NCBI GenBank assembly: GCA_038245195.1
Contig: JBBRSU010000001.1
Span: 128,121 to 192,120, forward strand
From: Candidatus Saccharimonadales bacterium
Lineage (GTDB): Bacteria; Patescibacteriota; Saccharimonadia; Saccharimonadales; UBA10212
Direction of reading: 5' to 3'
DNA length: 64,000 bases
A program made the translations under genes and the position numbers. The notes under the pieces are model-generated. The model saw only the letters and a program-made list of their open reading frames with translations, searched no databases and was not told the origin of the DNA. This document shows, piece by piece, positions 6,224-38,577 of the stretch. Position 1 is the stretch's first letter; each line of letters starts with the position of its first letter.

Positions 6224-6252
6224 ACTTAACTAGTATAACAGATTAGATAAGA

Positions 6253-8361: not shown

Positions 8362-8984
8362 TGCACCTCTAGCTTAAGGCTATCAGTTGATGTTTTAGTT
8401 TGGCCGTTTAGGCTAGCAATCGCTTCAACTATCCACGAGCCTTTACTTAGTCCGGCAGTCTCTATATCCCAGTACCAGTAGGTTGCACCGTTACTATCTG
8501 TGTTTTGCTCAGTTAGCTTTTTAACAACATCATTCTTGATGAATTTTATGTAACAGGTAGCACCGACAGTAGTATTACAAACGGAGGCCTCCGATGTCGG
8601 GTTGTTGCCACCCGGATGATGATTGCTTACGAAGTTACCATAGGGGCTGATTAAACTGCTATTAATAGCCGGTGAGGCAGTGTTGGATTGTGTTTTATCA
8701 GAGCCTTGGGTTGTGTCCGGCGCCGAAGAAGATTGAGGGGGTGCCTTCGACGCCTGATTTTTTAAGCTAGCCGAGTTTTCAGAGGTTGGGTTGGTGCTGG
8801 GTATAGTCCCACTTTTAGTGCCAGGACTTCGAAAAAAAAGGTAAACTGCAAATATAACTATGAGTAACGCAATAGATGTCAATAACACATTTCGTCGTGA
8901 GACTTTAATAGCTTTTCGTTTAGGCATTGTTTTTATTTTATCGTGTGCTTTGTAAGCACGCTGTGACACATTTAACTTTAGCAC
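8358..8984 (-). CDS. membrane-anchored hypothetical protein with S/T/P-rich linker and small C-terminal beta domain
   Basis: 208-aa ORF. The start is probably the internal MPKRK at 8927. One TM segment (LLTSIALLIVIFAVYLFF) is followed by a low-complexity linker. The stop overlaps the lectin gene start as ATGA, so the two are probably co-translated. Confidence 0.5.
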   Translation of the reverse strand: MLKLNVSQRAYKAHDKIKTMPKRKAIKVSRRNVLLTSIALLIVIFAVYLFFRSPGTKSGTIPSTNPTSENSASLKNQASKAPPQSSSAPDTTQGSDKTQSNTASPAINSSLISPYGNFVSNHHPGGNNPTSEASVCNTTVGATCYIKFIKNDVVKKLTEQNTDSNGATYWYWDIETAGLSKGSWIVEAIASLNGQTKTSTDSLKLEVQ

Positions 8985-11566: not shown

Positions 11567-12324
11567 CTTTCGATTTAGATGGAACACTAGCTCCAAGTAA
11601 ATCGGCACTACCAGACCGGATGGGTGCTGCTTTGAATGATCTGCTTGAAAAGTATCACGTTTGTGTAATCTCTGGTGGTAAGTTTGAGCAATTCGAAAAA
11701 CAGCTACTTGGCAACCTGAAGACCGATGAAACCAAGCTGGCGAAACTGCACCTTATGCCAACTTGTGGAACTCGTTATTATCGATATGACAAAGTTAGTA
11801 AAACTTGGGAGCAGGTTTATGCCGAAGATTTTGACGCACAGCAAAAAACCGTAATTATCAAAGCTCTGAAGGTAGCGGTTGAGCATTTTGGAATGCAGGA
11901 AGAAGAAGTTTACGGTGAGACTATCGAGGACCGGGGTAGCCAAATAAGCTGGTCGGCCCTAGGGCAGGACGTAGTTGATGTATTAGGTGAAGAGGGTATC
12001 AAGCGCAAAGAAGAATGGGACCCCGATAATAAGAAAAAACTAAAGATTGTAGATCATTTGACACCTCTTTTAAAGGAATTCGAGGTAAGAGCAGGCGGGA
12101 CTACGACTATTGATATTACAAAAAAAGGTATAGACAAGGCCTATGGCATGAATAAAATTATGGAGGTCCTTAAAATAGATAAACACCAAATATTCTTTAT
12201 AGGTGACAAAATAATGGAGGGCGGCAACGACTATCCGGTGAAAGCCATGGGTATCGACACTTTGCAGATTTCCGACTGGCAGGAAACGGCTTTAGCTGTC
12301 GAAGTTATTATAAAAACTTCATAA
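11548..12324 (+). CDS. HAD-IIB phosphatase-fold phosphomannomutase-like protein
   Basis: It has the HAD motif I VIAFDLDGTLAPSK, a cap region, and a C-terminal FFIGDKIMEGGNDYP (motif IV). The architecture is that of the eukaryotic-type PMM / HAD-IIB family. It sits next to the GDP-mannose gene. Confidence 0.65.
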   Translation: MVRKVIAFDLDGTLAPSKSALPDRMGAALNDLLEKYHVCVISGGKFEQFEKQLLGNLKTDETKLAKLHLMPTCGTRYYRYDKVSKTWEQVYAEDFDAQQKTVIIKALKVAVEHFGMQEEEVYGETIEDRGSQISWSALGQDVVDVLGEEGIKRKEEWDPDNKKKLKIVDHLTPLLKEFEVRAGGTTTIDITKKGIDKAYGMNKIMEVLKIDKHQIFFIGDKIMEGGNDYPVKAMGIDTLQISDWQETALAVEVIIKTS

Positions 12325-25305: not shown

Positions 25306-25342
25306 AGGTCCTATTGGTGAGTAAGCCTGGGGATAAGAAAAA

Positions 25343-25370
25343 AGCACCAATCTTGCGATAGATGCTTTTT
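25343..25370 (+). terminator. putative intrinsic terminator after the GT2 gene
   Basis: agcaccaatc ttgc gatagatgct pairs at 8 of 10 positions and is followed by ttttt. Confidence 0.4.
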
Positions 25371-25373
25371 ATT

Positions 25374-25397
25374 TGGCTCCGGCGGCTGGATTCAAAC
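25374..25397 (-). repeat. tRNA 3'-end fragment (direct repeat of the tRNA-Asn 3' end; att-like)
   Basis: tggctccggcggctggattcaaac compared with tggctccggaggccggattcgaac at 27620-27643 gives 21/24 identity in the same orientation. No 5' acceptor partner exists upstream, so this is not a complete tRNA. Confidence 0.7.
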
Positions 25398-25477
25398 TAA
25401 TATGACCTTAAGCCTTCGAATCTAATGAATCGCTTTACTTTAGCTTAATCTGTCTGTCTTATCAAATTTAGATATAT

Positions 25478-25486
25478 TGCTAGAAT
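25478..25486 (+). promoter_or_regulatory. extended -10 element TGcTAGAAT, 6 nt upstream of ATG 25493 (leaderless-type)
   Basis: tgctagaat is followed by agattt and then ATG. No SD. Confidence 0.4.
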
Positions 25487-25492
25487 AGATTT

Positions 25493-25831
25493 ATGACTAC
25501 ACACCAACTTCAGGTAGCCACTCAGCCATTTAACTCAATCGTCGCCGGCATAAAAACTATTGAGTCTCGACTATTCGATGATAAACGTAAAACTATCAGA
25601 CTAGGCGATGAGATTATTTTTGCTAATCGAGAAGACCCAGCACAAACAGTATCAACACGAGTAATTGGTCTACTGAACTACCGAGACTTCCACAACCTTT
25701 TTAGTCATAATGACCCACTTAAGTTCGGTGGCGAGAGTGTTGAGTGGCTCGAGAACCAAATCAATGAGTTTTACAGTGTCGATGATCAAGTACAGTATGG
25801 GGTTGTCGGCATTGAGTTTGAACACATGTAG
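25493..25831 (+). CDS. ASCH (PUA-like) domain protein
   Basis: 112 aa. LQVATQPFNSIVAGIKTIESRLFDDKRKTIRLGDEIIF...YGVVGIEFE follows the ASCH beta-barrel pattern. Confidence 0.6.
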   Translation: MTTHQLQVATQPFNSIVAGIKTIESRLFDDKRKTIRLGDEIIFANREDPAQTVSTRVIGLLNYRDFHNLFSHNDPLKFGGESVEWLENQINEFYSVDDQVQYGVVGIEFEHM

Positions 25832-25918
25832 TTGTAAATACCTTAGTTTTATATTATAATAAGCATATCCTATCCACTGCTACGTACTAAAATCGTAGCA
25901 ATCACATGGAGGTGTACC

Positions 25919-27262
25919 TTGACCACATCATTGGTCAACGACAAGGTTATCGTCCGCCCTGCGGCAGCCGATGACTTCGAGTGGGTGGCCGATCTCATGG
26001 TGCGGGCTCTGAGCCCGTTCTACGGAGGTGACCACCGTGCGCACGCACAGAGGATCTTCGACACGCACATGGAAGGAGGCATCGATCACGTTGGTCACTT
26101 CTCGGCTGGACAGTACATGTTCATCGCGGAGCAGAGTGGCCAGCCGCTCGGCCTTATCCACGTCGTCGAGAAGAAGCAAGAGACGGTGAAGATCAGTCCA
26201 CTGATCGTCAGCCCCGACTACCGGGGCAAGCTGGGAATCGGAAGCGTGCTACTCAAGCACGCCGAAGACTTCGCCCACGAGCTTGGTGCTCGTCAGCTGT
26301 ACTGCACAGTCGCTTCACCTAACCAGAAGGCGCTGGACTTCTTCCTCCGGAAGGGGTTCCGCATCACTGGCACAGCGAAGGATCACTACAAGCAGGGCAT
26401 CAATGAGCACATGCTCTACAAGGAGCTGGGCGACGAGCCTGGCTACGACGCCCCCAACGTGTCGGTGATTCCGTTCAATGAGGAGAAGCACGGCAACGCC
26501 GCGCGACACCTCATCCTCTCGCAGATGAGTGACATCTTCCGCGGTGTAGACGACGACTGGGTTGACGCCCTGTTCGCCGGCTACAAGCGAAGGACAAGCT
26601 CTGATGTCAACAGCAAGTACAAGATCGTCTTCGTCGCCGAGAGCGGTGGCGAGGTTGTCGGCGTTGCTGGGGCCACCCCCAAGAAGGGTGAACCCATCAA
26701 GTTGATGCCACTCGTGGCTTCTTCTGAGGTGGCATTTGAAGCGCTCGTCATCGACCTCCAGGGGCTTCTGATGGACCACGGCCACAAGCTGTATGCCCAC
26801 CTGGTTCCGGAACCATGGCAGGTCGCATCTCTCCAGAGTCACGGCTGGTCGCTTGAAGGTGTGTTCCCGGGTGGGTACGCACCGAACAGCGTCGTTCAGC
26901 AGTGGGGCTTCAACTTCAACAAGGAAGGAACGACTGTGAGGAAGCTACGTATCAAGTACCCGTACTTCCGCGACATCATGTCCGGGAAGAAGTCGCTCGA
27001 GGTACGAGTTGGGTACGACAACATCAAGAAGTTTCGCGAGGGCGAGCTCCTGCAGCTCGAAACCAGCCGAACGTCGGGCGTCGTCCGGATCAAGTCGATC
27101 CGGATCTACGACAACTTCGCTGATATGCTGGCGATCGAGCCGTGGCGCGAGATTGTGCCGCAGGTCGACAGCCAGGAGGCGGCAGTGAAACTCCTGCGGG
27201 AGATCTACCCCGTCAACAAGGAGCGTCTCGGCGTACACGTCATCGAGGTCGAGAAGCAGTAG
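25919..27262 (+). CDS. GC-rich fusion protein: two GNAT acetyltransferase-like domains plus C-terminal ASCH domain
   Basis: The TTG start follows GGAGGTGTACC. GNAT region: IVSPDYRGKLGIGSVLLKHAEDFAHELGARQLYCTV...ALDFFLRKGFRITG. A second GNAT-like half spans ~190-330. The C-terminus LRIKYPYFRDIMSGKKSLEVRVGYDNIKKFREGELLQL...LGVHVIEVE is ASCH-like. Line 26401-26460 is 37/60 GC by hand count. Confidence 0.65.
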   Translation: MTTSLVNDKVIVRPAAADDFEWVADLMVRALSPFYGGDHRAHAQRIFDTHMEGGIDHVGHFSAGQYMFIAEQSGQPLGLIHVVEKKQETVKISPLIVSPDYRGKLGIGSVLLKHAEDFAHELGARQLYCTVASPNQKALDFFLRKGFRITGTAKDHYKQGINEHMLYKELGDEPGYDAPNVSVIPFNEEKHGNAARHLILSQMSDIFRGVDDDWVDALFAGYKRRTSSDVNSKYKIVFVAESGGEVVGVAGATPKKGEPIKLMPLVASSEVAFEALVIDLQGLLMDHGHKLYAHLVPEPWQVASLQSHGWSLEGVFPGGYAPNSVVQQWGFNFNKEGTTVRKLRIKYPYFRDIMSGKKSLEVRVGYDNIKKFREGELLQLETSRTSGVVRIKSIRIYDNFADMLAIEPWREIVPQVDSQEAAVKLLREIYPVNKERLGVHVIEVEKQ

Positions 27263-27380
27263 GGTAAGACAGGGTTCACACCCCTAAATAGTGCGAGTGA
27301 CCTGGGCTAGTGTCACTGATACCCGATCTAAGGTGTCGAACAACTAGCCTGTTTTTCTTTGGTTCAAATTTTAACGGTTC

Positions 27381-27594
27381 GGTCTAGGAACCCAGTCGGG
27401 TTTCACGCCGCTCGCTTCTCATATAGGCTTACGGTCGAATCTAGAACCGAATAACAGAAGGGAAGAGTCAGTATTAAAGCTATTTGATTGGTTCCAACCG
27501 TTTCTGAAAGTATAGGAACCGAACTCGGACTGCTAACAGGAGTGAGACTTTATGGAGAAAGTATCAAAAATAAGAAAGACCGGTCTAGGAACCT
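27381..27594. repeat. array of four copies of a 10-12 bp motif (GGTCTAGGAACC / TMTAGRAACC) next to the tRNA-Asn 3' end
   Basis: The copies are ggtctaggaacc at 27381-27392, gaatctagaacc at 27437-27448, agtataggaacc at 27509-27520 and ggtctaggaacc at 27583-27594. Start-to-start spacings are 56, 72 and 74 nt. Complementary GGTTC(C) half-sites lie at 27361, 27376 and 27490. Confidence 0.7.
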
Positions 27595-27619
27595 GGTCTA
27601 CCTCTGTTGATGCTTGGTC

Positions 27620-27694
27620 TGGCTCCGGAGGCCGGATTCGAACCGGCGACCTGGGGATTAACAGTCCCTCGCTCTACCGCTGAGCTACTCCGGA
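27620..27694 (-). tRNA. tRNA-Asn (anticodon GTT), CCA encoded
   Basis: The reverse complement is TCCGGAG TA GCTC AGCGGTA GAGC G AGGGA CTGTTAA TCCCC AGGTC GCCGG TTCGAAT CCGGC CTCCGGA G CCA. It forms a full cloverleaf with a 7-bp acceptor stem, a T33-GTT-A37 anticodon loop and the TTCGAAT T-loop. Confidence 0.92.
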
Positions 27695-27758
27695 TTAACA
27701 GATTGATTATATGGGAGCGAAAGATAGGGCGTCAATTGTTAAATTCTTTGATTAGGTG

Positions 27759-28808
27759 TTAGCTTTTAGAAAAGCCGGTTGCTGCAATTTTACCCAAACG
27801 GCTGGATACGCTACTGTATTGCACATCTTTCCCGGTTAATTCTTCTAAGTCCTGGACGATTTCAGCGTAAATCAAGTCCGTGATCTGGGCATAGTTATAA
27901 GATTTAAGCATCTGCTGAACATCGATAATGTCGTGTACACGCAAATGCCAATCTTCTAATACAGGGGGCCCAACTAATGTAATCGCTACTGCGTCGTCAA
28001 AATCCTCGACCAACTTAGCCGAAGACTGATGGATCTCGGGTATTCTATAATGCTCAAACACACCATCTTCATCCAACACTGGCTTTACCTCACTACCGCT
28101 TAAGGCAATGTCTAGCTCTAAGCCCCCAGCTTTTAAATCGGGTAGGAGGACTTTTTTGAAGAGTGCATTAGTGAGGTCTGATGCACTGTCTGGAATTCCG
28201 TATTTTTCAGCGGAGAGACTTTTAGGGCTAGAAAAGTATACGTTTCCTAATGGTTTAAACTGATTAGTTAATTTTTTACCCCTATATTCTTGGCGCGTCA
28301 TCAATTTATTTAATACTACGCCGTTCTTGTTTATTAAATCTCGGTCTTGTTTCGCCAAGTGCCTTAAGGCTTTTACGTAGCCCATCTCCTGAAAATTAAT
28401 ATGCGAAGTAACTACGAGCGTATTTTTACCCTGGGCATGGTTGTTATTTAGTCGGTCGGGCAAAGTAGTAGAATCCGATTCCGAAGCTGGGTGCTCATGG
28501 AGTTGATGAAGAAGTTTTTGTGTAGCAACTACTCCAATTGATCTCATGAGTCTTAGTCTGAACCCTAGATAATATAGACTGTCTGGTAAGTTTGGAAATA
28601 TAGTCTGAGCGTCAACCTTAGGCATATAAATTCCCTGTTCGGGGTGAGAAGTAATATCAAAGTTGAACGGCTGGAGTTTGGAGCCTGGTCTACTGCTCAT
28701 ATCCTCTAGCCAAGGGTCATAGGCCTTATGTAAACCTATAGTTGGGTCGCCGTATCTTTTGTAGAATCTGGAGTACTGACCAGCTTCAATTTCTTGCGGA
28801 TTAGTCAT
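27759..28808 (-). CDS. hypothetical protein (349 aa)
   Basis: Long clean ORF with no confident family. There is only a weak, unverified resemblance to acyltransferase motifs (VVTSHINFQE, ALSGSEV). Confidence 0.5.
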   Translation of the reverse strand: MTNPQEIEAGQYSRFYKRYGDPTIGLHKAYDPWLEDMSSRPGSKLQPFNFDITSHPEQGIYMPKVDAQTIFPNLPDSLYYLGFRLRLMRSIGVVATQKLLHQLHEHPASESDSTTLPDRLNNNHAQGKNTLVVTSHINFQEMGYVKALRHLAKQDRDLINKNGVVLNKLMTRQEYRGKKLTNQFKPLGNVYFSSPKSLSAEKYGIPDSASDLTNALFKKVLLPDLKAGGLELDIALSGSEVKPVLDEDGVFEHYRIPEIHQSSAKLVEDFDDAVAITLVGPPVLEDWHLRVHDIIDVQQMLKSYNYAQITDLIYAEIVQDLEELTGKDVQYSSVSSRLGKIAATGFSKS

Positions 28809-28819
28809 ATAAGTGTTCT

Positions 28820-28828
28820 ATTATAGCA
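28820..28828 (-). promoter_or_regulatory. extended -10 element TGCTATAAT (minus strand), 11 nt upstream of ATG 28808
   Basis: Forward attatagca is the reverse complement of TGCTATAAT. No SD lies between it and the start codon. Confidence 0.4.
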
Positions 28829-29000
28829 AATTTAATGAGAAAAGTACTACAAAAATGTGAAGCAGACCGTGGTATTATTAAATTCTTAACAAATGGGTTG
28901 CTGGAAGTTAGTGAAAATCTAACACTGTGCCGCAACGGTGATGCGCTTTTAAGCGATAAGTCCGATACAGCTTTTTAGTAAATTTGCTCCCGAGCAGGAG

Positions 29001-29025
29001 AAGTACTTAACTTATCAAGTATTTT
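29001..29025. repeat. degenerate copy of the TACTTAAC/GTTAAGTA palindrome family
   Basis: aagtacttaacttatcaagtatttt has an intact left arm and 2 changes in the right arm. It sits in the divergent intergenic region 28809-29056. Confidence 0.6.
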
Positions 29026-29056
29026 AAACCTCTGCCAGCGAGCCGGGGTATTTTTT

Positions 29057-30475
29057 TTGGAAACAAGCGAAAAATTAATTGAACGAACTAGGCCCAGGCT
29101 AGCCTGTGAAATCTATGATCAGCCGACAATGGAACAGCAAGCTTGGCTATTAATTAATTCGCGTGACCAAATCGAGCACGACCGCTGGGAACAAGAACCA
29201 AGTATAAATGCTAGAACCGCATTATTCGAGGCCCTTACAGCCAAAGGCCATCTATCCAGAATTGAATTTAATGAACCTCCAGAGTTAACCAACCAACGAA
29301 CTCTTCAAAGATTGATAAATGGTTGGGCTGATAGTCTGCCAGACTGGGAAAAACAACGCCGGTTTTCAGAAATTGTCGAGGAACTAACGATACATGAGGT
29401 CTATGAAGATATTAAAGCCGGTCTGTTGCCTGAAGATACCATAATTATCACTATCTCCAATTTTCCGCAGGGCGTTTCGGAGCAAGAAGCCACCCAAAAC
29501 GGTTATGGGGTACTGAATCAAAAAGGGATGACCCGAACAACCGCCTTTGAAGATGAGTTTAGAGTATTGGAGCAAGCGTCTAGGAGCAATAGTAACGACG
29601 GCAGTGCCGAGCGTTTCTTCTCAGCTCAAGGTCTTGTAGCTGAGCAGGGGGCTAATCAGCTATTGGCTAATCAGATTATAGCTACCAAACGTGATTTCCC
29701 GGACGGTGTAGTAAGCATCCAACAAATTTTAGACAGCTACTCTGGACCAAATGTTATTTACGGGGAAAATCGCCATCAAATGGATTTTAATGTTCCGGAA
29801 TATTATGAGCTTAGAGATATATCCGCCCAACGAGAGTTACAAGCCGAAAGTTTTATAAAAATACTAGAGAACTATGAGCGGCAGTTAAATATTAGCTACA
29901 ATGCTGGGCATATAAACTATGACCAGAAACTTTCAGCCTTATATATAAAACGCAAAGAACTGGTAGCTCAGATATGTTTGCTTTGTCCTGATTATGCCAA
30001 GGATGCTATGGGTGAACGATCGGCTGAATATATTAAGCAAGCGTCATATGCCATGGCCGCCGGCAATGATTCGGCCGGTATGCAGCACATGGAAATGGCA
30101 GTATCAGTTGCCGACTCTCGGGCCGGAGCGGTTTGCGGTGGTAGTGGGCTAGAATCGAATGACATTAACAATAATTCCAACTCCGATGTTAAGCTCATCT
30201 ATCTTGAAGCCAAAGAAGAGCGCAAAAACTGGAAATGGGCTCGCGGAGTTTGTGTAGTTAAAGAGTGTCCTAGCCGCCCGGTAAAAACCGAAGTTGGTCC
30301 GTGTAGCGTCTGCCGAAATTGCCAAAATATATTCGATAAAGGCGATACTCCCAAGCAAATTTATAAAGTCTTAGGTTTCTTGGATATTTTGTTTGAATCG
30401 CTGGCCGAATTCAATCGAAAATACGATGCCGAGCAAGCTGAAAAGAAAGCTAATAAGTCGAAGTTAGCTGCGTAA
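29057..30475 (+). CDS. hypothetical protein (472 aa) with C-terminal Cys-rich zinc-ribbon-like motif
   Basis: Long ORF. The start is uncertain: TTG at 29057 has no SD. The C-terminus reads CVVKECPSRPVKTEVGPCSVCRNC. No family recognised. Confidence 0.5.
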   Translation: METSEKLIERTRPRLACEIYDQPTMEQQAWLLINSRDQIEHDRWEQEPSINARTALFEALTAKGHLSRIEFNEPPELTNQRTLQRLINGWADSLPDWEKQRRFSEIVEELTIHEVYEDIKAGLLPEDTIIITISNFPQGVSEQEATQNGYGVLNQKGMTRTTAFEDEFRVLEQASRSNSNDGSAERFFSAQGLVAEQGANQLLANQIIATKRDFPDGVVSIQQILDSYSGPNVIYGENRHQMDFNVPEYYELRDISAQRELQAESFIKILENYERQLNISYNAGHINYDQKLSALYIKRKELVAQICLLCPDYAKDAMGERSAEYIKQASYAMAAGNDSAGMQHMEMAVSVADSRAGAVCGGSGLESNDINNNSNSDVKLIYLEAKEERKNWKWARGVCVVKECPSRPVKTEVGPCSVCRNCQNIFDKGDTPKQIYKVLGFLDILFESLAEFNRKYDAEQAEKKANKSKLAA

Positions 30476-30499
30476 AAATACTTAACTTGTTAAGTATTT
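30476..30499. repeat. palindrome family copy (exact 24-mer aaatacttaacttgttaagtattt)
   Basis: It has 11-bp perfect arms around TT. It fills the whole 22-nt gap between two convergent genes, whose stops are at 30473-30475 and 30498-30500. Confidence 0.9.
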
Positions 30500-32252
30500 A
30501 AGATTTGGCACGGCTAAGGCTGGCTAGGCTGCCCACTACGCTATGGCCCAGTTTTTTACGCTTAACTTTGCGCTGTTCCACGCCGTGCTGCTTCTTAAGA
30601 TAGCGGATGTGTTGTTCGCGGATTCGTTTAAAGTCCGATTTAGCAAAGCCGGACTTTTTTACAAAAGCCCCGATTTTTTCACCGCCAATAAAGTGCGGTA
30701 ATATCACATAGCTGGCGCCCTCATCGTAAAGTTTGCCGGCTTGTTTGGGGCTGTCGGCTTCGGCAATCACCACAGCTTCAGAATTTTTACGTTTCAAATA
30801 ATCTAGTAAAAACGAATTTGCCACCGGATCGGTGATGGTTGAAACAATTAGCTTGGCTCTGCTGATGTTGGCTTCGTCTAGCAGTTCTACGTCGGTACTA
30901 TCACCATAAATATGGGGGATTTTGCGCTGAATTAGGACATCGATAATTTCCGGGTCATAATCTACCACCACAAAACTACCTTTCAGTTGACGAAAAACTT
31001 TCACAAACTCATGGCCGCCTTTTTGATAGCCAAACAACACCATTTCGTAATTTTTAGGCTGAGCCGGCTCGCTGTGAGTATGGCTGCGCTCGAAAATATC
31101 CAAAAATCGTTCTAGCACACTAAAAATTCGCTCGCTAAAGATAATTAAATAAGATGATGCAGCGATAGAAACTAGGGCGATAAAAGTAATTGCTGTGACT
31201 AAACTGGAATCGATTAAGCCACGGCGATGGGCCAGCAGAACAAGCACAATTGAGAACTCACTAACTTGGGCCAGGGCCACCGAGGCTTTAAAACTGGTGC
31301 GCTTAGTGTAGCCAAGATAGCCCATTACGGCCATTGAAACTAAGGGCTTGGCAATAATAACTATTAAAGCTGAAACTAAAATTACTGGGAACATAGGGCC
31401 GATATGGTTGAGGTTGAGATTGGCACCCAATGCAATGAAGAAAACGATGACAAAAAAATCACGCAGTGGTCGCAAGCGAGCAGCAATTTCTTGGGCGTAG
31501 GGCTGAGTGGCCAGGCAAATACCGGCCAGCAGAGCCCCAATTTCGCTAGATAAGCCAATTTTTTGAAACAAGGCAGCGGCACCCAAGCCCCAAGCAATCG
31601 CAAATAAAAACAAAAATTCCTGACTGCCGGAAATTAGTCGATGATAACGTGGCAGTAACCGGTCGCTGATCCAGTAAATCACCAAACCCAAGACCCCGCC
31701 TTTTATAGCCAGCACAATTGTCGAACCAAGGGCTAGCGATTTGGTGTTGCCGGCCGAGGTTATCACTACCAACATAATCGCGAATAAGTCCTGAACCAAA
31801 GACACACTAATGGCAATTTTGCCGTATAGACGTGATTGCTCACGCTTATCACTTAGCATTTTTAGAATGATAATCGTGCTAGAAACTGCCAGACTGGCAC
31901 CCAAAAAAGCCGCCCCAGTGGAGCTTAAGCCTAGGGCTTTACCAAAAACCCAACCAAGGGCTGTGATAACTCCAACTTGGACTGAAGCCACATAGGTAGC
32001 AGTTTTACTAACCTCACGGACAATTTGCGGGTTTAACCCCAAGCCGATGATGAACAACAACAGGGCAATGCCTAGATCGGAAAATAGAGCCAAAGTGTCT
32101 GGTGATTTGGCAACATGGAATACCGCCGGTCCAACAATAATGCCAGTTAGGATGTGGCCAATAATTAGTGGCTGGTTGATGGCCCGCATCATTAACGCCA
32201 TAGCCGCACCGATTACGATAATTAAGCTAAGACCGGAAAATACGGTATCCAT
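30498..32252 (-). CDS. cation:proton antiporter (CPA2/Kef-type) with C-terminal RCK/TrkA-N domain
   Basis: 584 aa. About 12 TM segments form a Na_H_exchanger-like domain. This is followed by MVLFGYQKGGHEFVKVF...VVDYDPE, a Rossmann-type RCK domain. Confidence 0.8.
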   Translation of the reverse strand: MDTVFSGLSLIIVIGAAMALMMRAINQPLIIGHILTGIIVGPAVFHVAKSPDTLALFSDLGIALLLFIIGLGLNPQIVREVSKTATYVASVQVGVITALGWVFGKALGLSSTGAAFLGASLAVSSTIIILKMLSDKREQSRLYGKIAISVSLVQDLFAIMLVVITSAGNTKSLALGSTIVLAIKGGVLGLVIYWISDRLLPRYHRLISGSQEFLFLFAIAWGLGAAALFQKIGLSSEIGALLAGICLATQPYAQEIAARLRPLRDFFVIVFFIALGANLNLNHIGPMFPVILVSALIVIIAKPLVSMAVMGYLGYTKRTSFKASVALAQVSEFSIVLVLLAHRRGLIDSSLVTAITFIALVSIAASSYLIIFSERIFSVLERFLDIFERSHTHSEPAQPKNYEMVLFGYQKGGHEFVKVFRQLKGSFVVVDYDPEIIDVLIQRKIPHIYGDSTDVELLDEANISRAKLIVSTITDPVANSFLLDYLKRKNSEAVVIAEADSPKQAGKLYDEGASYVILPHFIGGEKIGAFVKKSGFAKSDFKRIREQHIRYLKKQHGVEQRKVKRKKLGHSVVGSLASLSRAKS

Positions 32253-32253
32253 C

Positions 32254-33618
32254 CTAATGAACTAGCGAGAAAATCGCTGCTCCGCCAGCCAATATCATCA
32301 GGCCGGTAACCGCCCAGCCAATAATTGTAGTGGAGGGTTTGTTAACCCACGGGCCCATAATTTTTTTGTTACTGCTAATGATTACAATTAGTACTAGCAC
32401 CACAGGGGCTACAACGCCATTAAACACAGCCGAGTATATCAAGGCCTTAATTGGGTCTAGCCCGATAAAATTCAACCCCAACCCGATTAGCATCGATAAA
32501 ATAATAACCCCATAAAAAGCATGGGCTTGTTTAAATTTACGGTAAAGGCCTTCGTTTAGCTTAAAACTCTCAGCAAATGCGTAACTGCTAGCACCGGCCA
32601 GTACCGGTATAGCCAGCAGGCCGGTACCGATAATGCCTACAGCGAATAGTAAGTAGGTAGCGTTACCGGCAAACGGCCGTAGGGCTTCGGCCGCCTGGGC
32701 GGCGGTGGTAATTTTAGTTATCCCGTGAGTGAATAATAGAGCACCGGAAGCGGCGATAATAAAGAACATCACTAAGTTACTTAGCAACATACCGCTCCAG
32801 ACATCTATACGCATATTGTGTACATCAGCCTTATGTACGTCGTTTTGGCGGGAAGTTATGCTGGTTTTCCCATCCATGATTTCCTGCTCGACTTCTTGCG
32901 AGGTCTGCCAAAAGAAAAGATATGGCGAAATGGTCGTACCCAAAATCGCACAAATTAGTAAAATCTGGTCCTTGCTCCAAGTGATACTTGGTATCGTAGC
33001 GTGTTTTAGCACATCACCCCAATTTAAGTGGGCCAGCAAAGCCGAGGCGATATAAGCCAACAGCACTAAGGCCAGCCACTTTAGGTATTTGGCGTAGCGG
33101 GCGTATGGTGTGAATATTTGCAAGCCGACACTTAATAAGGTAAAGCCGATAACCAATGCCGGAAAGTTTAAACTCGGCCGCAGTAGTTGGGCACCTTTGG
33201 CCATGGCGCCTAGGTCGGCACCAATGTTGAAGGCGTTGGCCGCGAATAAAAGCAAGGTGCAGGCGTATAAAACTTTTTTGGAAAAATGTGTCCGAATAAC
33301 CCCGGCCAGGCCACGGCCGGTCACCATGCCAATCCGGGCGCACATTTCCTGTACAACGGCCATTAGCGGAAATGTAATAATCGATAGCCAGAGTAGCTGA
33401 AAGCCGTACTGGGCACCGGTTTGGGAATAAGTGGCAATGCCGGATGGGTCGTCGTCTGATGCGCCAGTTGTCAGTCCAGGGCCTAAAATATTCCAGTATT
33501 CACGGGTTTTCTTGACAGTTTTGGTGGCACCAACTTGCTTAACCCTATTGGAAACCGCGTCGTTAATAGACCCGACTTCGTTTTCGGCTCTTTGCTGAAT
33601 TGTCTGTTTTTTTACCAT
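32254..33618 (-). CDS. mntH: NRAMP-family divalent metal (Mn2+/Fe2+) transporter
   Basis: GPGLTTGASDDDPSGIATYSQTGAQYGFQLLW and MVTGRGLA are NRAMP signatures. 11 TM segments. Confidence 0.8.
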   Translation of the reverse strand: MVKKQTIQQRAENEVGSINDAVSNRVKQVGATKTVKKTREYWNILGPGLTTGASDDDPSGIATYSQTGAQYGFQLLWLSIITFPLMAVVQEMCARIGMVTGRGLAGVIRTHFSKKVLYACTLLLFAANAFNIGADLGAMAKGAQLLRPSLNFPALVIGFTLLSVGLQIFTPYARYAKYLKWLALVLLAYIASALLAHLNWGDVLKHATIPSITWSKDQILLICAILGTTISPYLFFWQTSQEVEQEIMDGKTSITSRQNDVHKADVHNMRIDVWSGMLLSNLVMFFIIAASGALLFTHGITKITTAAQAAEALRPFAGNATYLLFAVGIIGTGLLAIPVLAGASSYAFAESFKLNEGLYRKFKQAHAFYGVIILSMLIGLGLNFIGLDPIKALIYSAVFNGVVAPVVLVLIVIISSNKKIMGPWVNKPSTTIIGWAVTGLMILAGGAAIFSLVH

Positions 33619-33711
33619 GTATGCCCGCTTTATTCCGCTTAAGCATTATGGTATAACCTCTTGAGCTAAAAGCCAAGTGCGGTTAATCCCAATCGGGGCG
33701 TAAGTCTGAGT

Positions 33712-33735
33712 AAATACTTAACTTGTTAAGTATTT
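33712..33735. repeat. palindrome family copy (exact 24-mer aaatacttaacttgttaagtattt)
   Basis: It is identical to the copy at 30476-30499. It overlaps the stop codon (33734-33736) of the DsbA-like gene. Confidence 0.9.
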
Positions 33736-34414
33736 ACGGCTTGGTTTTAGCGTCGATTTCGGCTTTGATAGCTGCACCAATTTTATCAGCACTAGGCGCA
33801 CCAGTTTGAGCATCGACTAATCCGCTGTTAGGCAGATATTTTCCGTCTAGGAAAAAGGTTGGCGTGGCTTTTTCTTGTTTGGTTTTATCAAAAGCCGCGA
33901 TATCGGCGTTAATTGAATCGTTAACTTGTGAGCTGGCATAATCGGTTTTGAACTGGCTAACATTTAAGCCGATTTGTTGAGCGTACTGAGCGAAAGTGTC
34001 CAGCGGGCTAGTAGAGCTTACCCAGGAATTCTGGTTTTCGTAGAGTTTATCGTGCATCTGCCAAAACTTGCCCTGCAACGATGCGGCTTCGGCCGCCCTA
34101 GCACCAGCAAAAGCGTTTTGGTGGATGGCCGTTAAGGGAAGGTTGCTAAACTGAAAATGAATGTCGTTGGAGTATTGGCTAAACATCTGTTTTAGAGGCA
34201 AGTAATAGGCTTCGCAGATTGGACATTCGTAATCGCCGTATTCAACCAGACTAACGTTTTTTAAGCCCTTACCTTCAACGTGAGAAGAAACTTGGCTGCC
34301 GCTGTTTTTTGAGCCGGATCCACTAGAATTGCTGCTGGAATGCTGGCTAATCACAAAAATTCCCACAAAAACAATAGCTATTCCACTAAGAATTCCCAAA
34401 AACCGCTTATCCAT
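33734..34414 (-). CDS. DsbA-family thiol:disulfide oxidoreductase, membrane-anchored
   Basis: It has an N-terminal TM segment, a Ser-rich linker, the CPICEAY active site (CxxC) and a thioredoxin fold. Confidence 0.75.
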   Translation of the reverse strand: MDKRFLGILSGIAIVFVGIFVISQHSSSNSSGSGSKNSGSQVSSHVEGKGLKNVSLVEYGDYECPICEAYYLPLKQMFSQYSNDIHFQFSNLPLTAIHQNAFAGARAAEAASLQGKFWQMHDKLYENQNSWVSSTSPLDTFAQYAQQIGLNVSQFKTDYASSQVNDSINADIAAFDKTKQEKATPTFFLDGKYLPNSGLVDAQTGAPSADKIGAAIKAEIDAKTKP

Positions 34415-34455
34415 ATAATCTCCTTATACTGTCAATACCAGTCTAGCACGAGTTA

Positions 34456-35337
34456 CTAGCCAACAATTGCCGCCGGCAATTCGTGAATACTAGCCAATTT
34501 AAGTACACCGACTGTGAACAAACCGCTTTGCATGAGCTTGCGGGCAATTTCATCATCTGAAAACTCGTCCTGTCGGAGTTGGTTAAGATAAAGACCATAA
34601 GTAATCGAAAGCATACCAAGCGGATGCCTGTCTTCGCTGATATGTTCATTGCGGAACAAGCCATTGATAAAAGAGTTGGGCGAGACGTCTTCGCGAGAGC
34701 CAGCTACGCGGTGCTTGCGCTCTAGTATTTCAGTAGAAGCCCCATGTCGAGCTGCCAGCTCAAACGCTTCGCTGGGCTCAAGGTCCCAGAGACTTTTGTC
34801 ACTGGCTCGTTTGGCTCCGACTTCAATCTCTCGTTCAATGTCACTAATTTCAAGACTATCAACGCCGGCTCGACGCAAACGAGTGTAAACTAGCCCGGCC
34901 ACCACTTCTTTATGCTCATAGTTGTAGCGTAGAGCATCAGCGTTGCAGAGTAGCGTAAGTGCCGCACATCCGGCTTTACCGAGTTTATTATCACCATGGA
35001 ACCACGGCATTCGATCCATAGCGATTAGCTCCTCGACTTTTTCTGGAAGCACCAGACTAAGTGGGCGTGCCTCTAAGCTAGCGTCCATATACTCGCCGGC
35101 AATCTCTGCTATCGCACGATTACCGGGTAACTGGCAGGTGCCGCCCTCAAAACCATCATCCATACAGTGTGAGTCTTTACTCTCAGGGCCAATATATTTA
35201 TTTTTAGCACAATCTCTAACTGCCTCAAGTTCGCGCTCAGAGACCGGTCCGAACTGCCCGCAATTACCTTTCCCCAGTAGGTCGAGTTCTAAGAACTTAA
35301 GTCCATTATCATCTTGTTCATTGGTAATTCTTGGCAT
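34456..35337 (-). CDS. hypothetical protein, moderately GC-rich
   Basis: The ORF extends to 35397. The best start is the ATG at 35337 (MPRITNEQ), preceded by GAAGGAG at 8 nt. Line 34681-34740 is 34/60 GC by hand count. No family recognised. Confidence 0.5.
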   Translation of the reverse strand: MPRITNEQDDNGLKFLELDLLGKGNCGQFGPVSERELEAVRDCAKNKYIGPESKDSHCMDDGFEGGTCQLPGNRAIAEIAGEYMDASLEARPLSLVLPEKVEELIAMDRMPWFHGDNKLGKAGCAALTLLCNADALRYNYEHKEVVAGLVYTRLRRAGVDSLEISDIEREIEVGAKRASDKSLWDLEPSEAFELAARHGASTEILERKHRVAGSREDVSPNSFINGLFRNEHISEDRHPLGMLSITYGLYLNQLRQDEFSDDEIARKLMQSGLFTVGVLKLASIHELPAAIVG

Positions 35338-35505
35338 ATATTCGACTCCTTCAAAATTCGGCATAAATAAAAAATCTCCTAAAGGTAGCCAACACAATAA
35401 GAAGGCAGCACCTATTTATCTTTAAACAACAGTTTTTTAATTTACACCTGTCTTTTGGATATGTAAAGTTAAAATCTTAGATTGGGCGTGTAAAATGGAA
35501 GACAG

Positions 35506-36549
35506 ATGAAGCCTGTGTATATTTTGTTGGTAATTGGGTCGGTAAAAATTATCATGCTATATAAGATGTATAATTCGGTGCCGGCCTTAGAGCTAAAGAG
35601 ATTGGCCAGGGACGGCAACCATCGAGCCGCGTCACTATACAAGGTTGCCAATTACCAAGCCAGTCTAGATGCGTTTCTTTGGATAACTGGTACTGCCATG
35701 GCCAGCGTCTTACTTATTTGGTCGGCTCGAACAAACTGGTGGCTGGCTAGCCTATTAATTACTGGTATAGCCTGGCTGGTTATTTGGGCACCAGCACCAC
35801 GCTGGGAAGGTCGGTTTGGTGCCTTATCAGCTATTAGTGCAAAATATCTGGCTTCGGTTTTAGCTTTTTTGAACCCAGTGTTGGGCCGAATGGCTACTTG
35901 GTTGCCACCAACCGCTCGGGTCCAGCTGCATTCTGGCTTGTACGAAAAAAAAGATTTGTTAGATTTGTTGAACAACCAAAACCAACAGCTTGATAATCGA
36001 ATCGATGGGTCTGATTTAAAAATTGCTTCTGGAGCCATTAGCTTTGGCGATAAAACCGTTAGATCAGTTATGACCCCCCGCCGAAAGCTACGACTTGTGG
36101 GCGCCGGTGAGACGGTTGGCCCAATGCTAATGGACGAGTTACACAAGACTGGTCACAGTCGGTTTCCGGTGGTTAAAGATTCAACAGCCAAAAACGCCAC
36201 GCCGGAAATTGTCGGCACGCTTTATCTAAAAGATATTATTGGCTACCAAGGGGGTGGCAAAGTTAAAGATCAGGCCCGAAAGGATGTGTACTACATCAAT
36301 GAAGACGCAAGCCTGCGCCAAGCCCTCGGCGCATTTTTAAAAACCCATCATCACTTGCTGATAGTAGTTAATAGTTTCGAAGAAATTGCCGGAGTTTTAG
36401 CAATGGAAGACGTTTTTGAACAAATAATTGGTCAGCCAATTATTGATGAGTTTGATAACTACGATAGCCTAAGGGCGGTAGCCAGTAAAGAAGCCGAAAC
36501 CGAGCGCAAAAACCACAACGAAGTTCCAGTTGCACCCAAAGCCGAATAA
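35506..36549 (+). CDS. CNNM/CorC-HlyC family protein (DUF21 membrane domain + CBS pair)
   Basis: N-terminal TM segments are followed by VRSVMTPRRKLRLV...GHSRFPVVKD...IVGTLYLKDII...HLLIVVNSFEEIAGVLAMEDVFEQIIG, a CBS pair of the CorC type. Confidence 0.75.
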   Translation: MKPVYILLVIGSVKIIMLYKMYNSVPALELKRLARDGNHRAASLYKVANYQASLDAFLWITGTAMASVLLIWSARTNWWLASLLITGIAWLVIWAPAPRWEGRFGALSAISAKYLASVLAFLNPVLGRMATWLPPTARVQLHSGLYEKKDLLDLLNNQNQQLDNRIDGSDLKIASGAISFGDKTVRSVMTPRRKLRLVGAGETVGPMLMDELHKTGHSRFPVVKDSTAKNATPEIVGTLYLKDIIGYQGGGKVKDQARKDVYYINEDASLRQALGAFLKTHHHLLIVVNSFEEIAGVLAMEDVFEQIIGQPIIDEFDNYDSLRAVASKEAETERKNHNEVPVAPKAE

Positions 36550-36591
36550 ATTTATACTCTTTAACAATTTGACTCTTGTACGACAGCAACT

Positions 36592-37131
36592 ATGACAATA
36601 TTAGAAAAACCAGCTTTACGAACCCTACAAAGTTCGCCCCCACTTGGGACCATTGAACATATTTCTTATTTTGCAGAGCAGTCAAAATCATTTAGGGGTA
36701 GAAAACTTTCCAAGTTGTTTGAGTTTTTGTATCAGCACAACGTTGCTGAGTCTTTGGCATATTTTATAGCCCAGAACGAAACACCTAAGCGCAATAGTCC
36801 AGAGCTTCATCGTTCGCTCGATACTCGGGATCTTCATGACTATCAAACCGGTCCAATTATTGATGCCGAGTTTCATTACGATCCGTTCCAAGACGATAGG
36901 TATGTTTTCTTAGCCGGGCGGCGTTGGCCTAAGTCAAAGCGATCATACAGTCTAAAAATGTTCCTGAGCAATGACCTAGAAATGGATGGTGCTAGACCAC
37001 CCGAAGCTCATGTAACTGGCGGACTATATCCTGTACAAACGTTTAGAACTTTTGCAAGACCAGAATATAACGAAGACCGTCCAGCGGTTTTTTTAAATAT
37101 TTTGCGAGTGGCCGCATCTGGGTTAGAGTAG
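36592..37131 (+). CDS. hypothetical protein
   Basis: 179-aa ORF. No family recognised. Confidence 0.45.
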   Translation: MTILEKPALRTLQSSPPLGTIEHISYFAEQSKSFRGRKLSKLFEFLYQHNVAESLAYFIAQNETPKRNSPELHRSLDTRDLHDYQTGPIIDAEFHYDPFQDDRYVFLAGRRWPKSKRSYSLKMFLSNDLEMDGARPPEAHVTGGLYPVQTFRTFARPEYNEDRPAVFLNILRVAASGLE

Positions 37132-37182
37132 TTTGTTGTAGCCCGTGATAATAGTTAATCAATCTGTTAAAATAACTCCTAT

Positions 37183-38577
37183 ATGGAGCGAATTTTAATT
37201 AAGGATACTGTTGATAAAGTTGGCGACAAAGTTATTGTTAAGGGTTGGGTGCACGCTCGGCGCGACCACGGAAAATTAATTTTTATAGATTTACGCGACC
37301 GTGGTGGGTTACTCCAAGTAGTTTTTTGGGGCGGTGGTGATACCAAGCTTTTCAAACAAGCCGAAGAACTACGCAGTGAATTCGTAGTTGCAATTACCGG
37401 CACTGTCCAAAAACGCCAAGACAACCAAATTAATCCAGATTTACCAACCGGTACAGTTGAGCTAGCCGCCGAGAAGCTAGAAATTATTAGCCAAGCCGAA
37501 ACCCCGCCATTCGAAATCGCCGACTCCAATGTTCCAGAAGCCGGTGAAGAATCTCGCCTAAAATATCGATACCTAGACTTACGTCGCGATAAAATGCAAC
37601 ACAACATCCGCTTGCGTAGTGCCTTTGTCCAAAAATGCCGCGAATATTTATTCAGCCAAGATTTCGTAGAAATCGAAACACCGTTATTAACCGAGGCCAC
37701 ACCGGAAGGCTCGCGCGATTTCGTAGTGCCATCCCGCTTAAACCAAGGTAAGTTCTATGCTTTGCCACAGTCGCCCCAGCAATACAAACAGCTATTAATG
37801 ATTGGCGGGTTTGAGCGCTACTTCCAAATTGCCCGGGCTATCCGCGACGAAGACCCGCGGGCCGACCGTGGCTTCGAACACACTCAGGTAGATATCGAAA
37901 TGAGCTTTGTCGAACAAGATGACGTTATGAACACAGTCGAAGCGATGATGATTAAAACCGTTGAATCACTGGGCTTTAAAGTCAAAGACAAGCCGTTTCC
38001 GCGTTTTACATATGCCGAGGCAATGGAAAAATTCGGAGCTGACAAGTTCGATTTACGCAGCGGCGAAGAAAAGAAAGACCCTAAACTGCTGGCTTACGCC
38101 TGGGTATATAAGTTTCCATTTTTTGAAAAAACCGAAGAAGGCGGTTGGACCTTTACCCATAACCCGTTCAGCATGCCAGTCCCAGAGCATCTTGATGATT
38201 TGTTAAACAAAAATAACATCGAGAATATTCTAACCACCCAGTATGACCTGGTTTGTAACGGCTATGAATCGGGCGGTGGCAGTATCCGGGCCCACCAGCC
38301 AGAAATTCTTAAAGCCGTATACGAAGTTATGGGCTATTCTGCCGAGAAAATCCAAGACAGTGTCGGGCATATGCTGGAAGCCTTTAAATATGGCACGCCG
38401 CCACACGGTGGTATCGCTCTGGGCGTGGAGCGCAACCTAATGAACTTAACCGGCGAAAGCTACCTGCGCGAAGTCCAAGCCTTCCCAATGACCGGCAAAG
38501 GTCAAACCGCTGTTATGAAGGGCCCTAAACCACTTACCGATGCCCAGCTCAAAGAACTCGGGCTAAAAATTTCCTGA
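37183..38577 (+). CDS. aspS: aspartate--tRNA ligase, bacterial-type motifs but lacking the GAD insertion domain
   Basis: It has an OB-fold N-terminus (VIVKGWVHARRDHGKLIFIDLRD). Motif region: FYALPQSPQQYKQLLMIGGFERYFQIARAIRDEDPRADRGFEHTQVDIEMSF. C-terminus: GGGSIRAH...PPHGGIALGVER. It is only 464 aa: FGADKFDLR is followed directly by ...FPFFEKTEEGGWTFTHNPFSMP. Confidence 0.9.
   Translation: MERILIKDTVDKVGDKVIVKGWVHARRDHGKLIFIDLRDRGGLLQVVFWGGGDTKLFKQAEELRSEFVVAITGTVQKRQDNQINPDLPTGTVELAAEKLEIISQAETPPFEIADSNVPEAGEESRLKYRYLDLRRDKMQHNIRLRSAFVQKCREYLFSQDFVEIETPLLTEATPEGSRDFVVPSRLNQGKFYALPQSPQQYKQLLMIGGFERYFQIARAIRDEDPRADRGFEHTQVDIEMSFVEQDDVMNTVEAMMIKTVESLGFKVKDKPFPRFTYAEAMEKFGADKFDLRSGEEKKDPKLLAYAWVYKFPFFEKTEEGGWTFTHNPFSMPVPEHLDDLLNKNNIENILTTQYDLVCNGYESGGGSIRAHQPEILKAVYEVMGYSAEKIQDSVGHMLEAFKYGTPPHGGIALGVERNLMNLTGESYLREVQAFPMTGKGQTAVMKGPKPLTDAQLKELGLKIS

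Follow-up and report, generated by a model that had tools for sequence, protein, structure and literature searches.

A putative eroded integration islet at a Saccharibacteria tRNA-Asn gene, carrying a widely distributed GNAT-ASCH cassette

Introduction

The 2002 classification by Williams of islands and prophages integrated at tRNA genes with tyrosine integrases is said to distinguish T-loop and anticodon-loop classes of attachment (att) sites. Cis-mobilizable elements (CIMEs), which keep their att sites, have lost the genes for integration and transfer (PMC6323972). Here we analyzed a 64-kb stretch of DNA (the window, meaning the whole stretch) from a member of the Saccharibacteria (TM7), the host assignment being based on homologues and fetched loci. 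In the window, a 2.2-kb islet lies between an intact tRNA-Asn(GTT) gene and a degenerate copy of its 3′ end. The islet carries a gene for an ASCH-domain protein and a GC-rich gene for a tandem-GNAT-ASCH fusion protein, which together form what appears to be a discrete, compositionally anomalous and horizontally circulating cassette. The first-pass annotation of the window had recognized the islet; the cassette is the main result beyond it. We found no description in the literature of the cassette, or of tRNA islands or islets in Saccharibacteria.

The islet resembles a CIME in that it is framed by att-like direct repeats, one of which is the 3′ end of a tRNA gene, contains no integration or transfer genes and has a small cargo; moreover, recombinase-bearing elements occupy the same type of site in its relatives. 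It differs from a CIME in that the distal repeat is degenerate, with stem-breaking changes, and no cognate integrative and conjugative element (ICE) or integrative and mobilizable element (IME) was identified. Furthermore, the same cargo occurs at five tRNAs and in both orientations, whereas described CIMEs are tied to one att site, and the host belongs to the Candidate Phyla Radiation (CPR), in which we found no such elements described.

The likeness to classical tRNA islands lies in the duplicated segment, which runs from the T-loop (tRNA-Asn, 24 nt) or the anticodon-stem region (tRNA-Trp, ~40 nt; tRNA-Leu in the locus L003, 56 nt) to CCA, and in the placement of an intact tRNA on one side and a fragment on the tRNA 3′ side. 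An intact tRNA, a distal direct repeat and a deviant composition of the fusion gene are all present, as in a tRNA island, but an internal integrase is not. The islet also differs in having no integrase beside the tRNA and in its size of only 2.2 kb, and the recombinases near tRNAs in its relatives (L023 and L048) are large serine recombinases, not tyrosine integrases.

Results

A degenerate copy of the tRNA-Asn 3′ end bounds the islet

We compared the window with fetched homologous loci and contigs, numbered L001 to L060. Both ARAGORN and Rfam confirmed the annotated tRNA-Asn(GTT), which is the sole tRNA called by ARAGORN in the window (Table 1). The proximal att-like repeat is the last 24 nt of the gene (27620-27643; plus-strand sequence TGGCTCCGGAGGCCGGATTCGAAC). 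The distal copy, TGGCTCCGGCGGCTGGATTCAAAC, is oriented like the tRNA and lies to the 3′ side of that gene, as had been reported. It is the only further match to the 24-mer at up to three mismatches on both strands of the 64 kb, and none of 100 dinucleotide shuffles of the window yielded a second match; by our own estimate, which assumes uniform composition, the chance of one is ~3e-5 per window. The distal copy extends from the T-loop to the encoded CCA. One of its three mismatches changes a conserved T-loop position and the other two break the stem, so that the copy would be non-functional with the present 5′ half. Both junctions were reproduced by two independent Logan unitigs from the run SRR19962014, one covering the GT2 gene, the tRNA fragment, the ASCH gene and the fusion gene (L001) and the other covering a 349-aa gene, tRNA-Asn, the spacer and the 3′ end of the fusion gene (L046), indicating that the locus is not an assembly chimera.

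The neighbor beyond the distal copy is the GT2 gene, with its stop at 25305, and GT2 homologues on other contigs are not accompanied by the 24-nt tRNA fragment. The hairpin with T/A runs between this stop and the fragment is likely both a bidirectional terminator and the trailer that first belonged to the displaced tRNA 3′ end. Between the two repeats we found only the ASCH and GNAT-ASCH genes, with no integrase or excisionase, and Pfam and domain searches of the window open reading frames (ORFs) of at least 110 aa detected no integrase, recombinase or transposase domain in the entire 64 kb. The earlier statement that the islet lacks an integrase and an excisionase was thus borne out.

The cargo is a sharply bounded cassette

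The cassette is a sharply bounded unit of ~1.9 kb (25477-27362), consisting of a promoter-like box, the ASCH gene, the tandem-GNAT-ASCH gene and a long covarying terminator. Homology to other loci, as detected by blastn, begins at 25466-25492 and stops at 27362. Judging from these motifs, the cassette is probably a complete transcription unit, extending from ~15 nt upstream of the ASCH ATG, including a −10-like box, to the terminator T-run (...CTTTGG). The −10-like box is found in the equivalent place in most other loci, and its position suggests that the ASCH transcript is leaderless or has a very short leader. A hairpin in the intergenic region (GCTACG...CGTAGC, 25879-25899) is followed by a GGAGGTG Shine-Dalgarno sequence and the TTG start codon of the fusion gene. 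Since the hairpin, the Shine-Dalgarno sequence and the TTG start are also present in L020 (4609-4650), the conserved 5′ leader of the fusion gene (25879-25918) may be a regulatory element.

Table 1. Features of the islet and its borders in the window
Feature	Position	Strand	Basis or detail
Hairpin with T/A runs, AAAAAGCACC...GATGCTTTTT, between GT2 stop and tRNA fragment	25339-25370		Inverted repeat
Degenerate copy of the last 24 nt of tRNA-Asn (distal att-like repeat)	25374-25397	-	21/24 match
Junction segment, fragment to cassette, 79 nt	25398-25476		No homologue in any fetched locus
Promoter-like site, TTATCA-16-TAGAAT with TG	25459-25486	+	Motif match; ends 6 nt before ASCH ATG
ASCH-domain gene, 112 aa	25493-25831	+	Pfam PF04266, 2.7e-08
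Intergenic region, 87 nt	25832-25918	+	Promoter-like site (25832-25860); hairpin; Shine-Dalgarno
Tandem-GNAT and C-terminal ASCH fusion gene, 447 aa	25919-27262	+	Pfam GNAT and ASCH
Conserved structured 3′ tail, 100 nt	27263-27362	+	RNAalifold, 15 loci
Spacer, 257 nt	27363-27619		18-nt direct repeat
Putative native terminator of tRNA-Asn, GACCAGGTTCCTAGACCGGTC then TTTCTTATTTTTG on the minus strand	27565-27598	-	Read from sequence
tRNA-Asn(GTT), intact, encoded CCA	27620-27694	-	ARAGORN; Rfam, 70.7 bits
Promoter-like site of tRNA-Asn, TTGACG-18-TATAAT	27706-27735	-	Motif match, 11/12

The 3′ tail begins with a small hairpin. A long bipartite stem (GGGCTAGTGT...ACAACTAGCCT), within which GATACC...GGTGTC is enclosed, comes next and leads to a T-run. 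Its consensus fold has 26 pairs, 12 of which show compensatory changes, and the homology ends at CTTTGG in all loci. Although the tail matched no Rfam family, its layout points to the intrinsic terminator and right boundary of the cassette.

The fusion protein, described beforehand as GNAT-GNAT-ASCH encoded at roughly 60% GC, was confirmed as such by Pfam, by the GC content of its gene and by the fold matches of an AlphaFold2 (AF2) model with a predicted local distance difference test (pLDDT) score of 73.5. In this model, the first ~330 residues resemble tandem-GNAT enzymes, the best matches being 2wpw (clavulanate pathway), Legionella VipF and 5kf2 (a clostridial glucosamine N-acetyltransferase), and the C-terminal ~105 residues resemble the archaeal ASCH proteins PH0355 and PF0469; hence the predicted architecture is GNAT-GNAT-ASCH. 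The likeness is one of fold, as sequence identity to these structures is 12-20%, and no three-domain ASCH fusion was among the solved structures matched.

The spacer contains a putative tRNA-Asn terminator and its duplicate

About 360 bp of non-coding DNA with a repeated motif had been noted in the islet. This stretch, between the fusion gene and the tRNA, is 357 nt long (27263-27619) and does hold the motif, with GGTCTAGGAACC occurring twice exactly, along with degenerate copies. However, ~100 nt of it is the cassette terminator described above, and the motif-bearing remainder appears to contain the native tRNA-Asn terminator hairpin and a partial duplicate of it. The 18-nt direct repeat consists of CGGTCTAGGAACCCAGTC at 27380-27397 and CGGTCTAGGAACCTGGTC at 27581-27598. 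The tRNA-proximal copy is probably the tRNA's own terminator, since the hairpin and T-run are on the tRNA strand and a homologous sequence directly follows tRNA-Asn in the relative L048. The copy at 27380-27397 would then be a partial duplicate of this terminator. A structured RNA or known RNA family in the spacer was ruled out by z-scores of −0.1 and −0.5 and by the lack of an Rfam match, and a genome-wide binding site was ruled out by the confinement of the motif to the spacer region. The repeated motifs are also not obvious recombinase arm sites.

The cassette recurs beside five different tRNA genes

We identified 931 homologues of the fusion protein, and the best 120 of the 931 were 74-100% identical to it. 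In the loci compared, the fusion gene is preceded by an ASCH gene, and more than 25 loci, drawn from many studies, have the low-GC ASCH and high-GC fusion genes as a contiguous pair. In a species-representative set of 21 genomes and several further contigs, the cassette matched that of the window at 71-81% nucleotide identity over ~1.9 kb, in unrelated contexts (21 genome loci plus the contigs), and identities between other loci reached ~98%. For instance, a comparison of L004 and L009 over 9.5 kb finds similarity in the cassette alone, at 94.5% identity across 1903 nt, and the cassettes of L003 (tRNA-Leu) and L004 (tRNA-Trp) are 89.6% identical.

Across roughly 16 context classes, an intact tRNA directly adjoins the cassette at five different tRNA genes: Asn, Trp, Leu(TAG), Gly(CCC) and Glu(CTC). 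By chance only a few per cent would be expected in a ~1-Mb genome with ~45 tRNAs (our estimate, not a computed value). The tRNA lies upstream of the cassette at 57 nt for tRNA-Gly(CCC) (L023-L028), at 72 nt (L003/L019) or 9 nt (L017) for tRNA-Leu(TAG), at 58 nt for tRNA-Trp in L004 and at 80 nt for tRNA-Glu(CTC) in L010. It is convergent to the cassette at 257 nt for tRNA-Asn in the window, and at 54 nt (L053-55) or 231 nt (L007) for tRNA-Trp. Taken together, these placements suggest a strong affinity of the cassette for the 3′ flanks of several tRNA genes, as far as the compared sequences go.

The tRNA-Trp sites allow a closer comparison. L004 and L053 are syntenic 5′ of tRNA-Trp at 69% nucleotide identity, and both have the same frame, comprising tRNA-Trp, the same terminator hairpin, the cassette and then a ~30-40-nt degenerate copy of the 3′ part of the tRNA. 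The cassette, 86.5% identical between the two, is inverted in one frame relative to the other; the L053 arrangement is also found in L007 and L002, and the L004 arrangement in L008. Because tRNA-Trp and its 3′ fragment frame the cassette in L004 and L053, the geometry of the window recurs with a second tRNA, which agrees with the integration scar proposed for the islet at the outset.

The tRNA fragments found in the window, L003, L004, L006, L007, L020, L048, L053 and L056 are all 3′-terminal and end in CCA. Such fragments would be the signature of an integrase-generated duplication, not of random tRNA decay. In L020, a truncated cassette is followed by a tRNA-Asn 3′ fragment and then by an HTH_17 (excisionase-type) gene. 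No tRNA fragments were detected in the contexts that lack a tRNA, in a search limited to 19 distinct tRNAs rather than full genome sets.

Two further observations concern tRNA-derived sequences in these loci. L004 contains, at ~11590-11715 (+), a ~125-nt piece ending in a tRNA-Trp-like 3′ end. Its acceptor strand CACCCCC is matched by an upstream GGGGGTG, a compensated change relative to the real tRNA-Trp, and neither ARAGORN nor Rfam made a call on the piece. In L006, a 79-nt tandem duplication (5367-5445 and 5474-5552; 96% identical, 28 nt between the copies) starts in the last 21 nt of tRNA-Leu(TAA) and includes the trailer, forming a very small att-like duplication.

The tRNA-Asn flank varies among relatives, and serine recombinases lie near several cassettes

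To the right of tRNA-Asn, the window carries a core block of genes encoding a 349-aa protein, a 472-aa protein, a Na/H exchanger, Nramp, a thioredoxin-like protein, a CBS protein and a class II aminoacyl-tRNA synthetase. This core side is syntenic in L047, L048 and L056, and the 3′ side of tRNA-Asn is different in each of them, so that, among the closest relatives with synteny, tRNA-Asn appears to be a hot spot of recombination. In L048, the same terminator start follows tRNA-Asn, with a degenerate fragment 50 nt downstream; beyond it come an AAA_21 fragment, a large serine recombinase that is split and lies 2-3 kb 3′ of tRNA-Asn, and a restriction-enzyme fragment. In L047 and L056 the tRNA is inverted, with a 235-aa ORF in between, and L056 has a perfect 18-nt tRNA-Asn 3′ fragment, inverted and adjoining an unrelated GT2 gene. 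L057 has no tRNA at the position beside the 349-aa gene. As a separate observation, the tRNA-Asn of L056 (2914-3225) is split by a group I intron at 2963-3201 (-) (RF00028, 86.7 bits, E 1.6e-22), and ARAGORN made no call on the split gene.

An empty site, in which tRNA-Asn would directly precede the GT2 region, had been proposed as a check. We looked for it through both the GT2 gene and the core-side 349-aa gene and found none in the syntenic relatives or the GT2-bearing contigs. The metagenome scan with GT2 returned 17 loci that matched in the GT2 gene only, with no window synteny and no tRNA fragment, and the search with the 349-aa gene confirmed the synteny and found other material 3′ of tRNA-Asn in each relative.

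It had also been suggested that the segment might be found next to an integrase elsewhere. L006, L020 and L023 do have a large serine recombinase gene 0.5-3.7 kb away from the cassette, but none was identified as a cognate integrase for the att-like repeats, and most cassette contexts are without a recombinase gene. The closest relative of the window's cassette, at 92% amino acid identity, is that of L023, at tRNA-Gly(CCC). There, a large serine recombinase that has lost its catalytic N-terminus (7275-8582, +) lies 1.4 kb from the cassette. The 3′ ends of this gene and of tRNA-Gly(GCC) (8570-8645, -) overlap, which suggests that tRNA 3′ ends may serve the serine recombinases of Saccharibacteria as att sites.

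In L006, inverted repeats of 181 nt (902-1082 and 4153-4334) that are 99% identical enclose the cassette together with a 292-aa gene, and a large serine recombinase with a YVRKSTD N-terminal motif runs from ~614 leftwards (-), ~290 nt outside the left arm and ~550 nt from the cassette. From this layout, the L006 segment may be invertible or transposable; the inverted repeats were found in no other fetched locus. Homologous recombinases are present in L020 and L048. As for a cognate element of the islet, the candidates are the island with the split serine recombinase in L048 and the HTH_17 gene beside the tRNA-Asn fragment in L020; no intact integrase was tied to the att-like repeats.

Searches for a vehicle gave no phage match, and the only plasmid matches were a 33% identical tandem-GNAT protein on a Rhodococcus plasmid and a 31% identical ASCH protein on a Streptomyces plasmid. 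The IMG/VR contig L060 was rejected as a vehicle, as it is a fragment of Saccharibacteria DNA and its prophage-like block does not hold the cassette internally. That block (2735-8169; PDDEXK DUF3799, RecT, SSB and YopX) lies ~1.5-1.7 kb downstream of the cassette on this oral-type Saccharibacteria contig.

The fusion gene departs from host composition in every context

The GC content is 0.58-0.60 across the fusion gene and 0.35-0.48 around it, in a window of 44.5% GC. In the window, the fusion gene has a GC of 0.59 and a GC at third codon positions (GC3) of 0.78, as compared with a GC3 of 0.39 for the ASCH gene and 0.34-0.52 for the window ORFs. Likewise, in 18 loci the fusion gene GC3 is 0.65-0.81 with a flanking GC of 0.38-0.55, and the adjacent ASCH gene (GC3 0.25-0.50) is host-like; in the window, the spacers are host-like too. 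For the same pairs of loci, synonymous divergence (dS) is 1-3 in the ASCH gene and 0.2-1.4 in the fusion gene, 2-5 times lower, and identity steps up at the boundary between the two genes. The ratio of nonsynonymous to synonymous divergence (dN/dS) of the fusion gene is ~0.1.

An actinobacterial origin of the GC-rich gene is unsupported, because its named distant full-length homologues (38-51% identity) belong to Uhrbacteria and Saccharibacteria, which are CPR bacteria; actinobacterial links are limited to the two plasmid matches given above.

Other classes of element and system

We also compared the cassette with other classes. It is similar to an integron cassette in being short, discrete and about as long as a gene, in the conserved structure at its 3′ end and in its many contexts, but differs in having its own promoter-like boxes, a 3′ structure laid out as a terminator with a T-run, and both orientations. 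The assignment was rejected, as the cassette has neither an R″/R′ core nor, at its boundary, a GTTRRRY core, and intI, attI and arrays are absent. An insertion sequence, a miniature inverted-repeat transposable element or a transposon was rejected because the cassette ends have no significant repeats in 16 loci, except the tRNA repeats, and there is no transposase. A GNAT toxin-antitoxin system of the TacT/AtaT type was rejected because the protein is a 447-aa tandem GNAT with ASCH and the upstream gene encodes ASCH, not RHH/DUF1778; PADLOC gave a weak PDC-M11A match only. An invertible segment was rejected for the window, which has no inverted repeats at the cassette ends with an adjacent invertase, a layout seen only in L006.

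Other features of the window

The tRNA-Asn gene divides the window into a glycan and envelope cluster (1-25305), for which no synteny was recovered in relatives, and a conserved core (27695-38577). The left side comprises 25 kb of glycan and cell-envelope genes, and may in its entirety be a large variable region. On the core side, an adenosylcobalamin (AdoCbl, B12) riboswitch scoring 56.3 bits, above the gathering threshold, was found at 28876-28998 (+), directly upstream of the 472-aa ORF (29057-30475), which has no Pfam or NCBIfam match. This ORF is a candidate B12-regulated gene in a CPR genome. The same position is occupied by ORFs without a Pfam match in L047 (464 aa) and L048 (368 aa), a correspondence of position only.

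Discussion

We consider it probable on balance that the islet is an eroded, integrase-less, att-flanked, CIME-like remnant of a site-specific integration into tRNA-Asn that has kept a circulating cassette. Under this reading, the segment from 25374 to 27643 would be what is left of an element integrated into the tRNA-Asn 3′ end, with the intact tRNA as one att site and the degenerate 24-nt copy, with its own terminator, as the displaced other. The recombination genes would have been lost or never present in cis; a trans-acting integrase may have made the duplication, and deletion may then have trimmed the island down to the cassette, which was presumably retained since the acetyltransferase is useful. 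The cassette itself would move horizontally among Saccharibacteria, repeatedly landing in hot spots directly 3′ of tRNA genes. Several findings weigh against this account. The distal repeat matches at only 21 of 24 positions, a search of 5 kb at the Gly, Leu and Glu sites turned up no flanking tRNA-fragment repeat, no empty site was recovered, and no integrase with tRNA-Asn specificity was identified, the window itself holding none. Moreover, occupancy of five tRNAs, and of one tRNA-Trp frame in both orientations, is not like the behavior of a single integrase/attP pair. Because one cassette sits at five tRNAs in both orientations, several independent vehicles followed by erosion would be required under this reading. 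The initial proposal of a decayed island or a satellite mobilized in trans is therefore consistent with the scar geometry and the missing integrase, but a single tRNA-Asn-specific satellite fails to explain the other sites.

An alternative, which we regard as fairly unlikely, is that the 1.9-kb unit is itself mobile: a recombinase acting in trans, or some other route, would set it just downstream of tRNA terminators, facing either way, and the tRNA fragments would be older, unrelated scars of the same hot spots. A large serine recombinase acting on a symmetric-core site is the candidate agent. This alternative accounts well for boundaries that are the same to ~15 nt in all contexts, for a cassette that, whichever way it faces, starts ~16-18 nt beyond the same tRNA-Trp terminator hairpin, with the orthologous frames collinear, and for the Gly, Leu and Glu sites without a distal fragment. 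The between-genome identity of 86.5% for the cassette against 69% for the backbone and the L006 copy between inverted repeats beside a large serine recombinase also fit. However, the cassette ends show neither terminal inverted repeats nor target duplications and share no conserved recombination core, the 181-nt inverted repeats are unique to L006, the 3′ structure is laid out as an intrinsic terminator and not as attC, and no tRNA is nearby in about half of the contexts. The higher identity could also reflect constraint, given the dN/dS of ~0.1 and the slow synonymous change. Conversely, the cassette might be an old, mostly vertically inherited Saccharibacteria operon whose neighbors are scrambled by turnover at tRNA flanks, with the 24-mer an unrelated leftover of a deleted island or of a decayed tandem tRNA-Asn. 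Long residence is indeed suggested by L003 and L017, which share a tRNA-Leu(TAG) backbone (~67% nucleotide identity) and both have the cassette (72.6%), and the spread of the family across Saccharibacteria and into an Uhrbacteria genome (47% identity), the saturated, old-gene-like synonymous divergence of ASCH and the tRNA fragments found without a cassette (L048, L056 and the L006 Leu-TAA duplication) point the same way. Nevertheless, we consider vertical descent quite unlikely, because cassettes 90-95% identical occur in regions without shared flanks, the L003 cassette is nearer to that of L004 at a Trp site (89.6%) than to that of the orthologously placed L017 (72.6%), the nearest relative of the window's cassette is at tRNA-Gly(CCC) instead of tRNA-Asn, and the fusion GC3 of ~0.8 is foreign to every host. 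Finally, a chance match, or a chimera of GC-rich and Saccharibacteria contigs, might be suspected from the imperfect repeat, the abrupt GC jump and the breaking of the Logan unitigs inside the fusion gene. It is scarcely credible, since no shuffle reproduced the match, the independent unitigs hold both junctions and reach into the fusion gene from each side, and the same gene pair is contiguous in more than 25 loci.

Apart from the eroded-remnant account that we prefer, it is conceivable, though improbable, that the cassette represents a new type of recombinase-less mobile cassette of the CPR, a bare promoter-to-terminator unit captured specifically at the terminator-proximal flanks of many tRNAs in either orientation. 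The capture would be carried out by host large serine recombinases in trans or by another process. If this were true, the GC3 of ~0.8 and the slow synonymous change would reflect frequent exchange, through biased gene conversion or nucleotide-level selection, and not the host genomes.

Gene exchange in the tiny, streamlined genomes of Saccharibacteria and other CPR bacteria is poorly understood. The scars, the nearby serine recombinases and the rapid erosion described here point to tRNA 3′ ends acting as integration hot spots in Saccharibacteria. One small acetyltransferase cassette has apparently spread to many lineages and tRNA sites, resisting host compositional drift. The locus also offers a clean case for asking what holds GC3 high in a low-GC genome. 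The cassette encodes a predicted ASCH-linked acetyltransferase that is a defined candidate for functional studies, and it is a concrete, widely distributed marker for horizontal transfer in the CPR.

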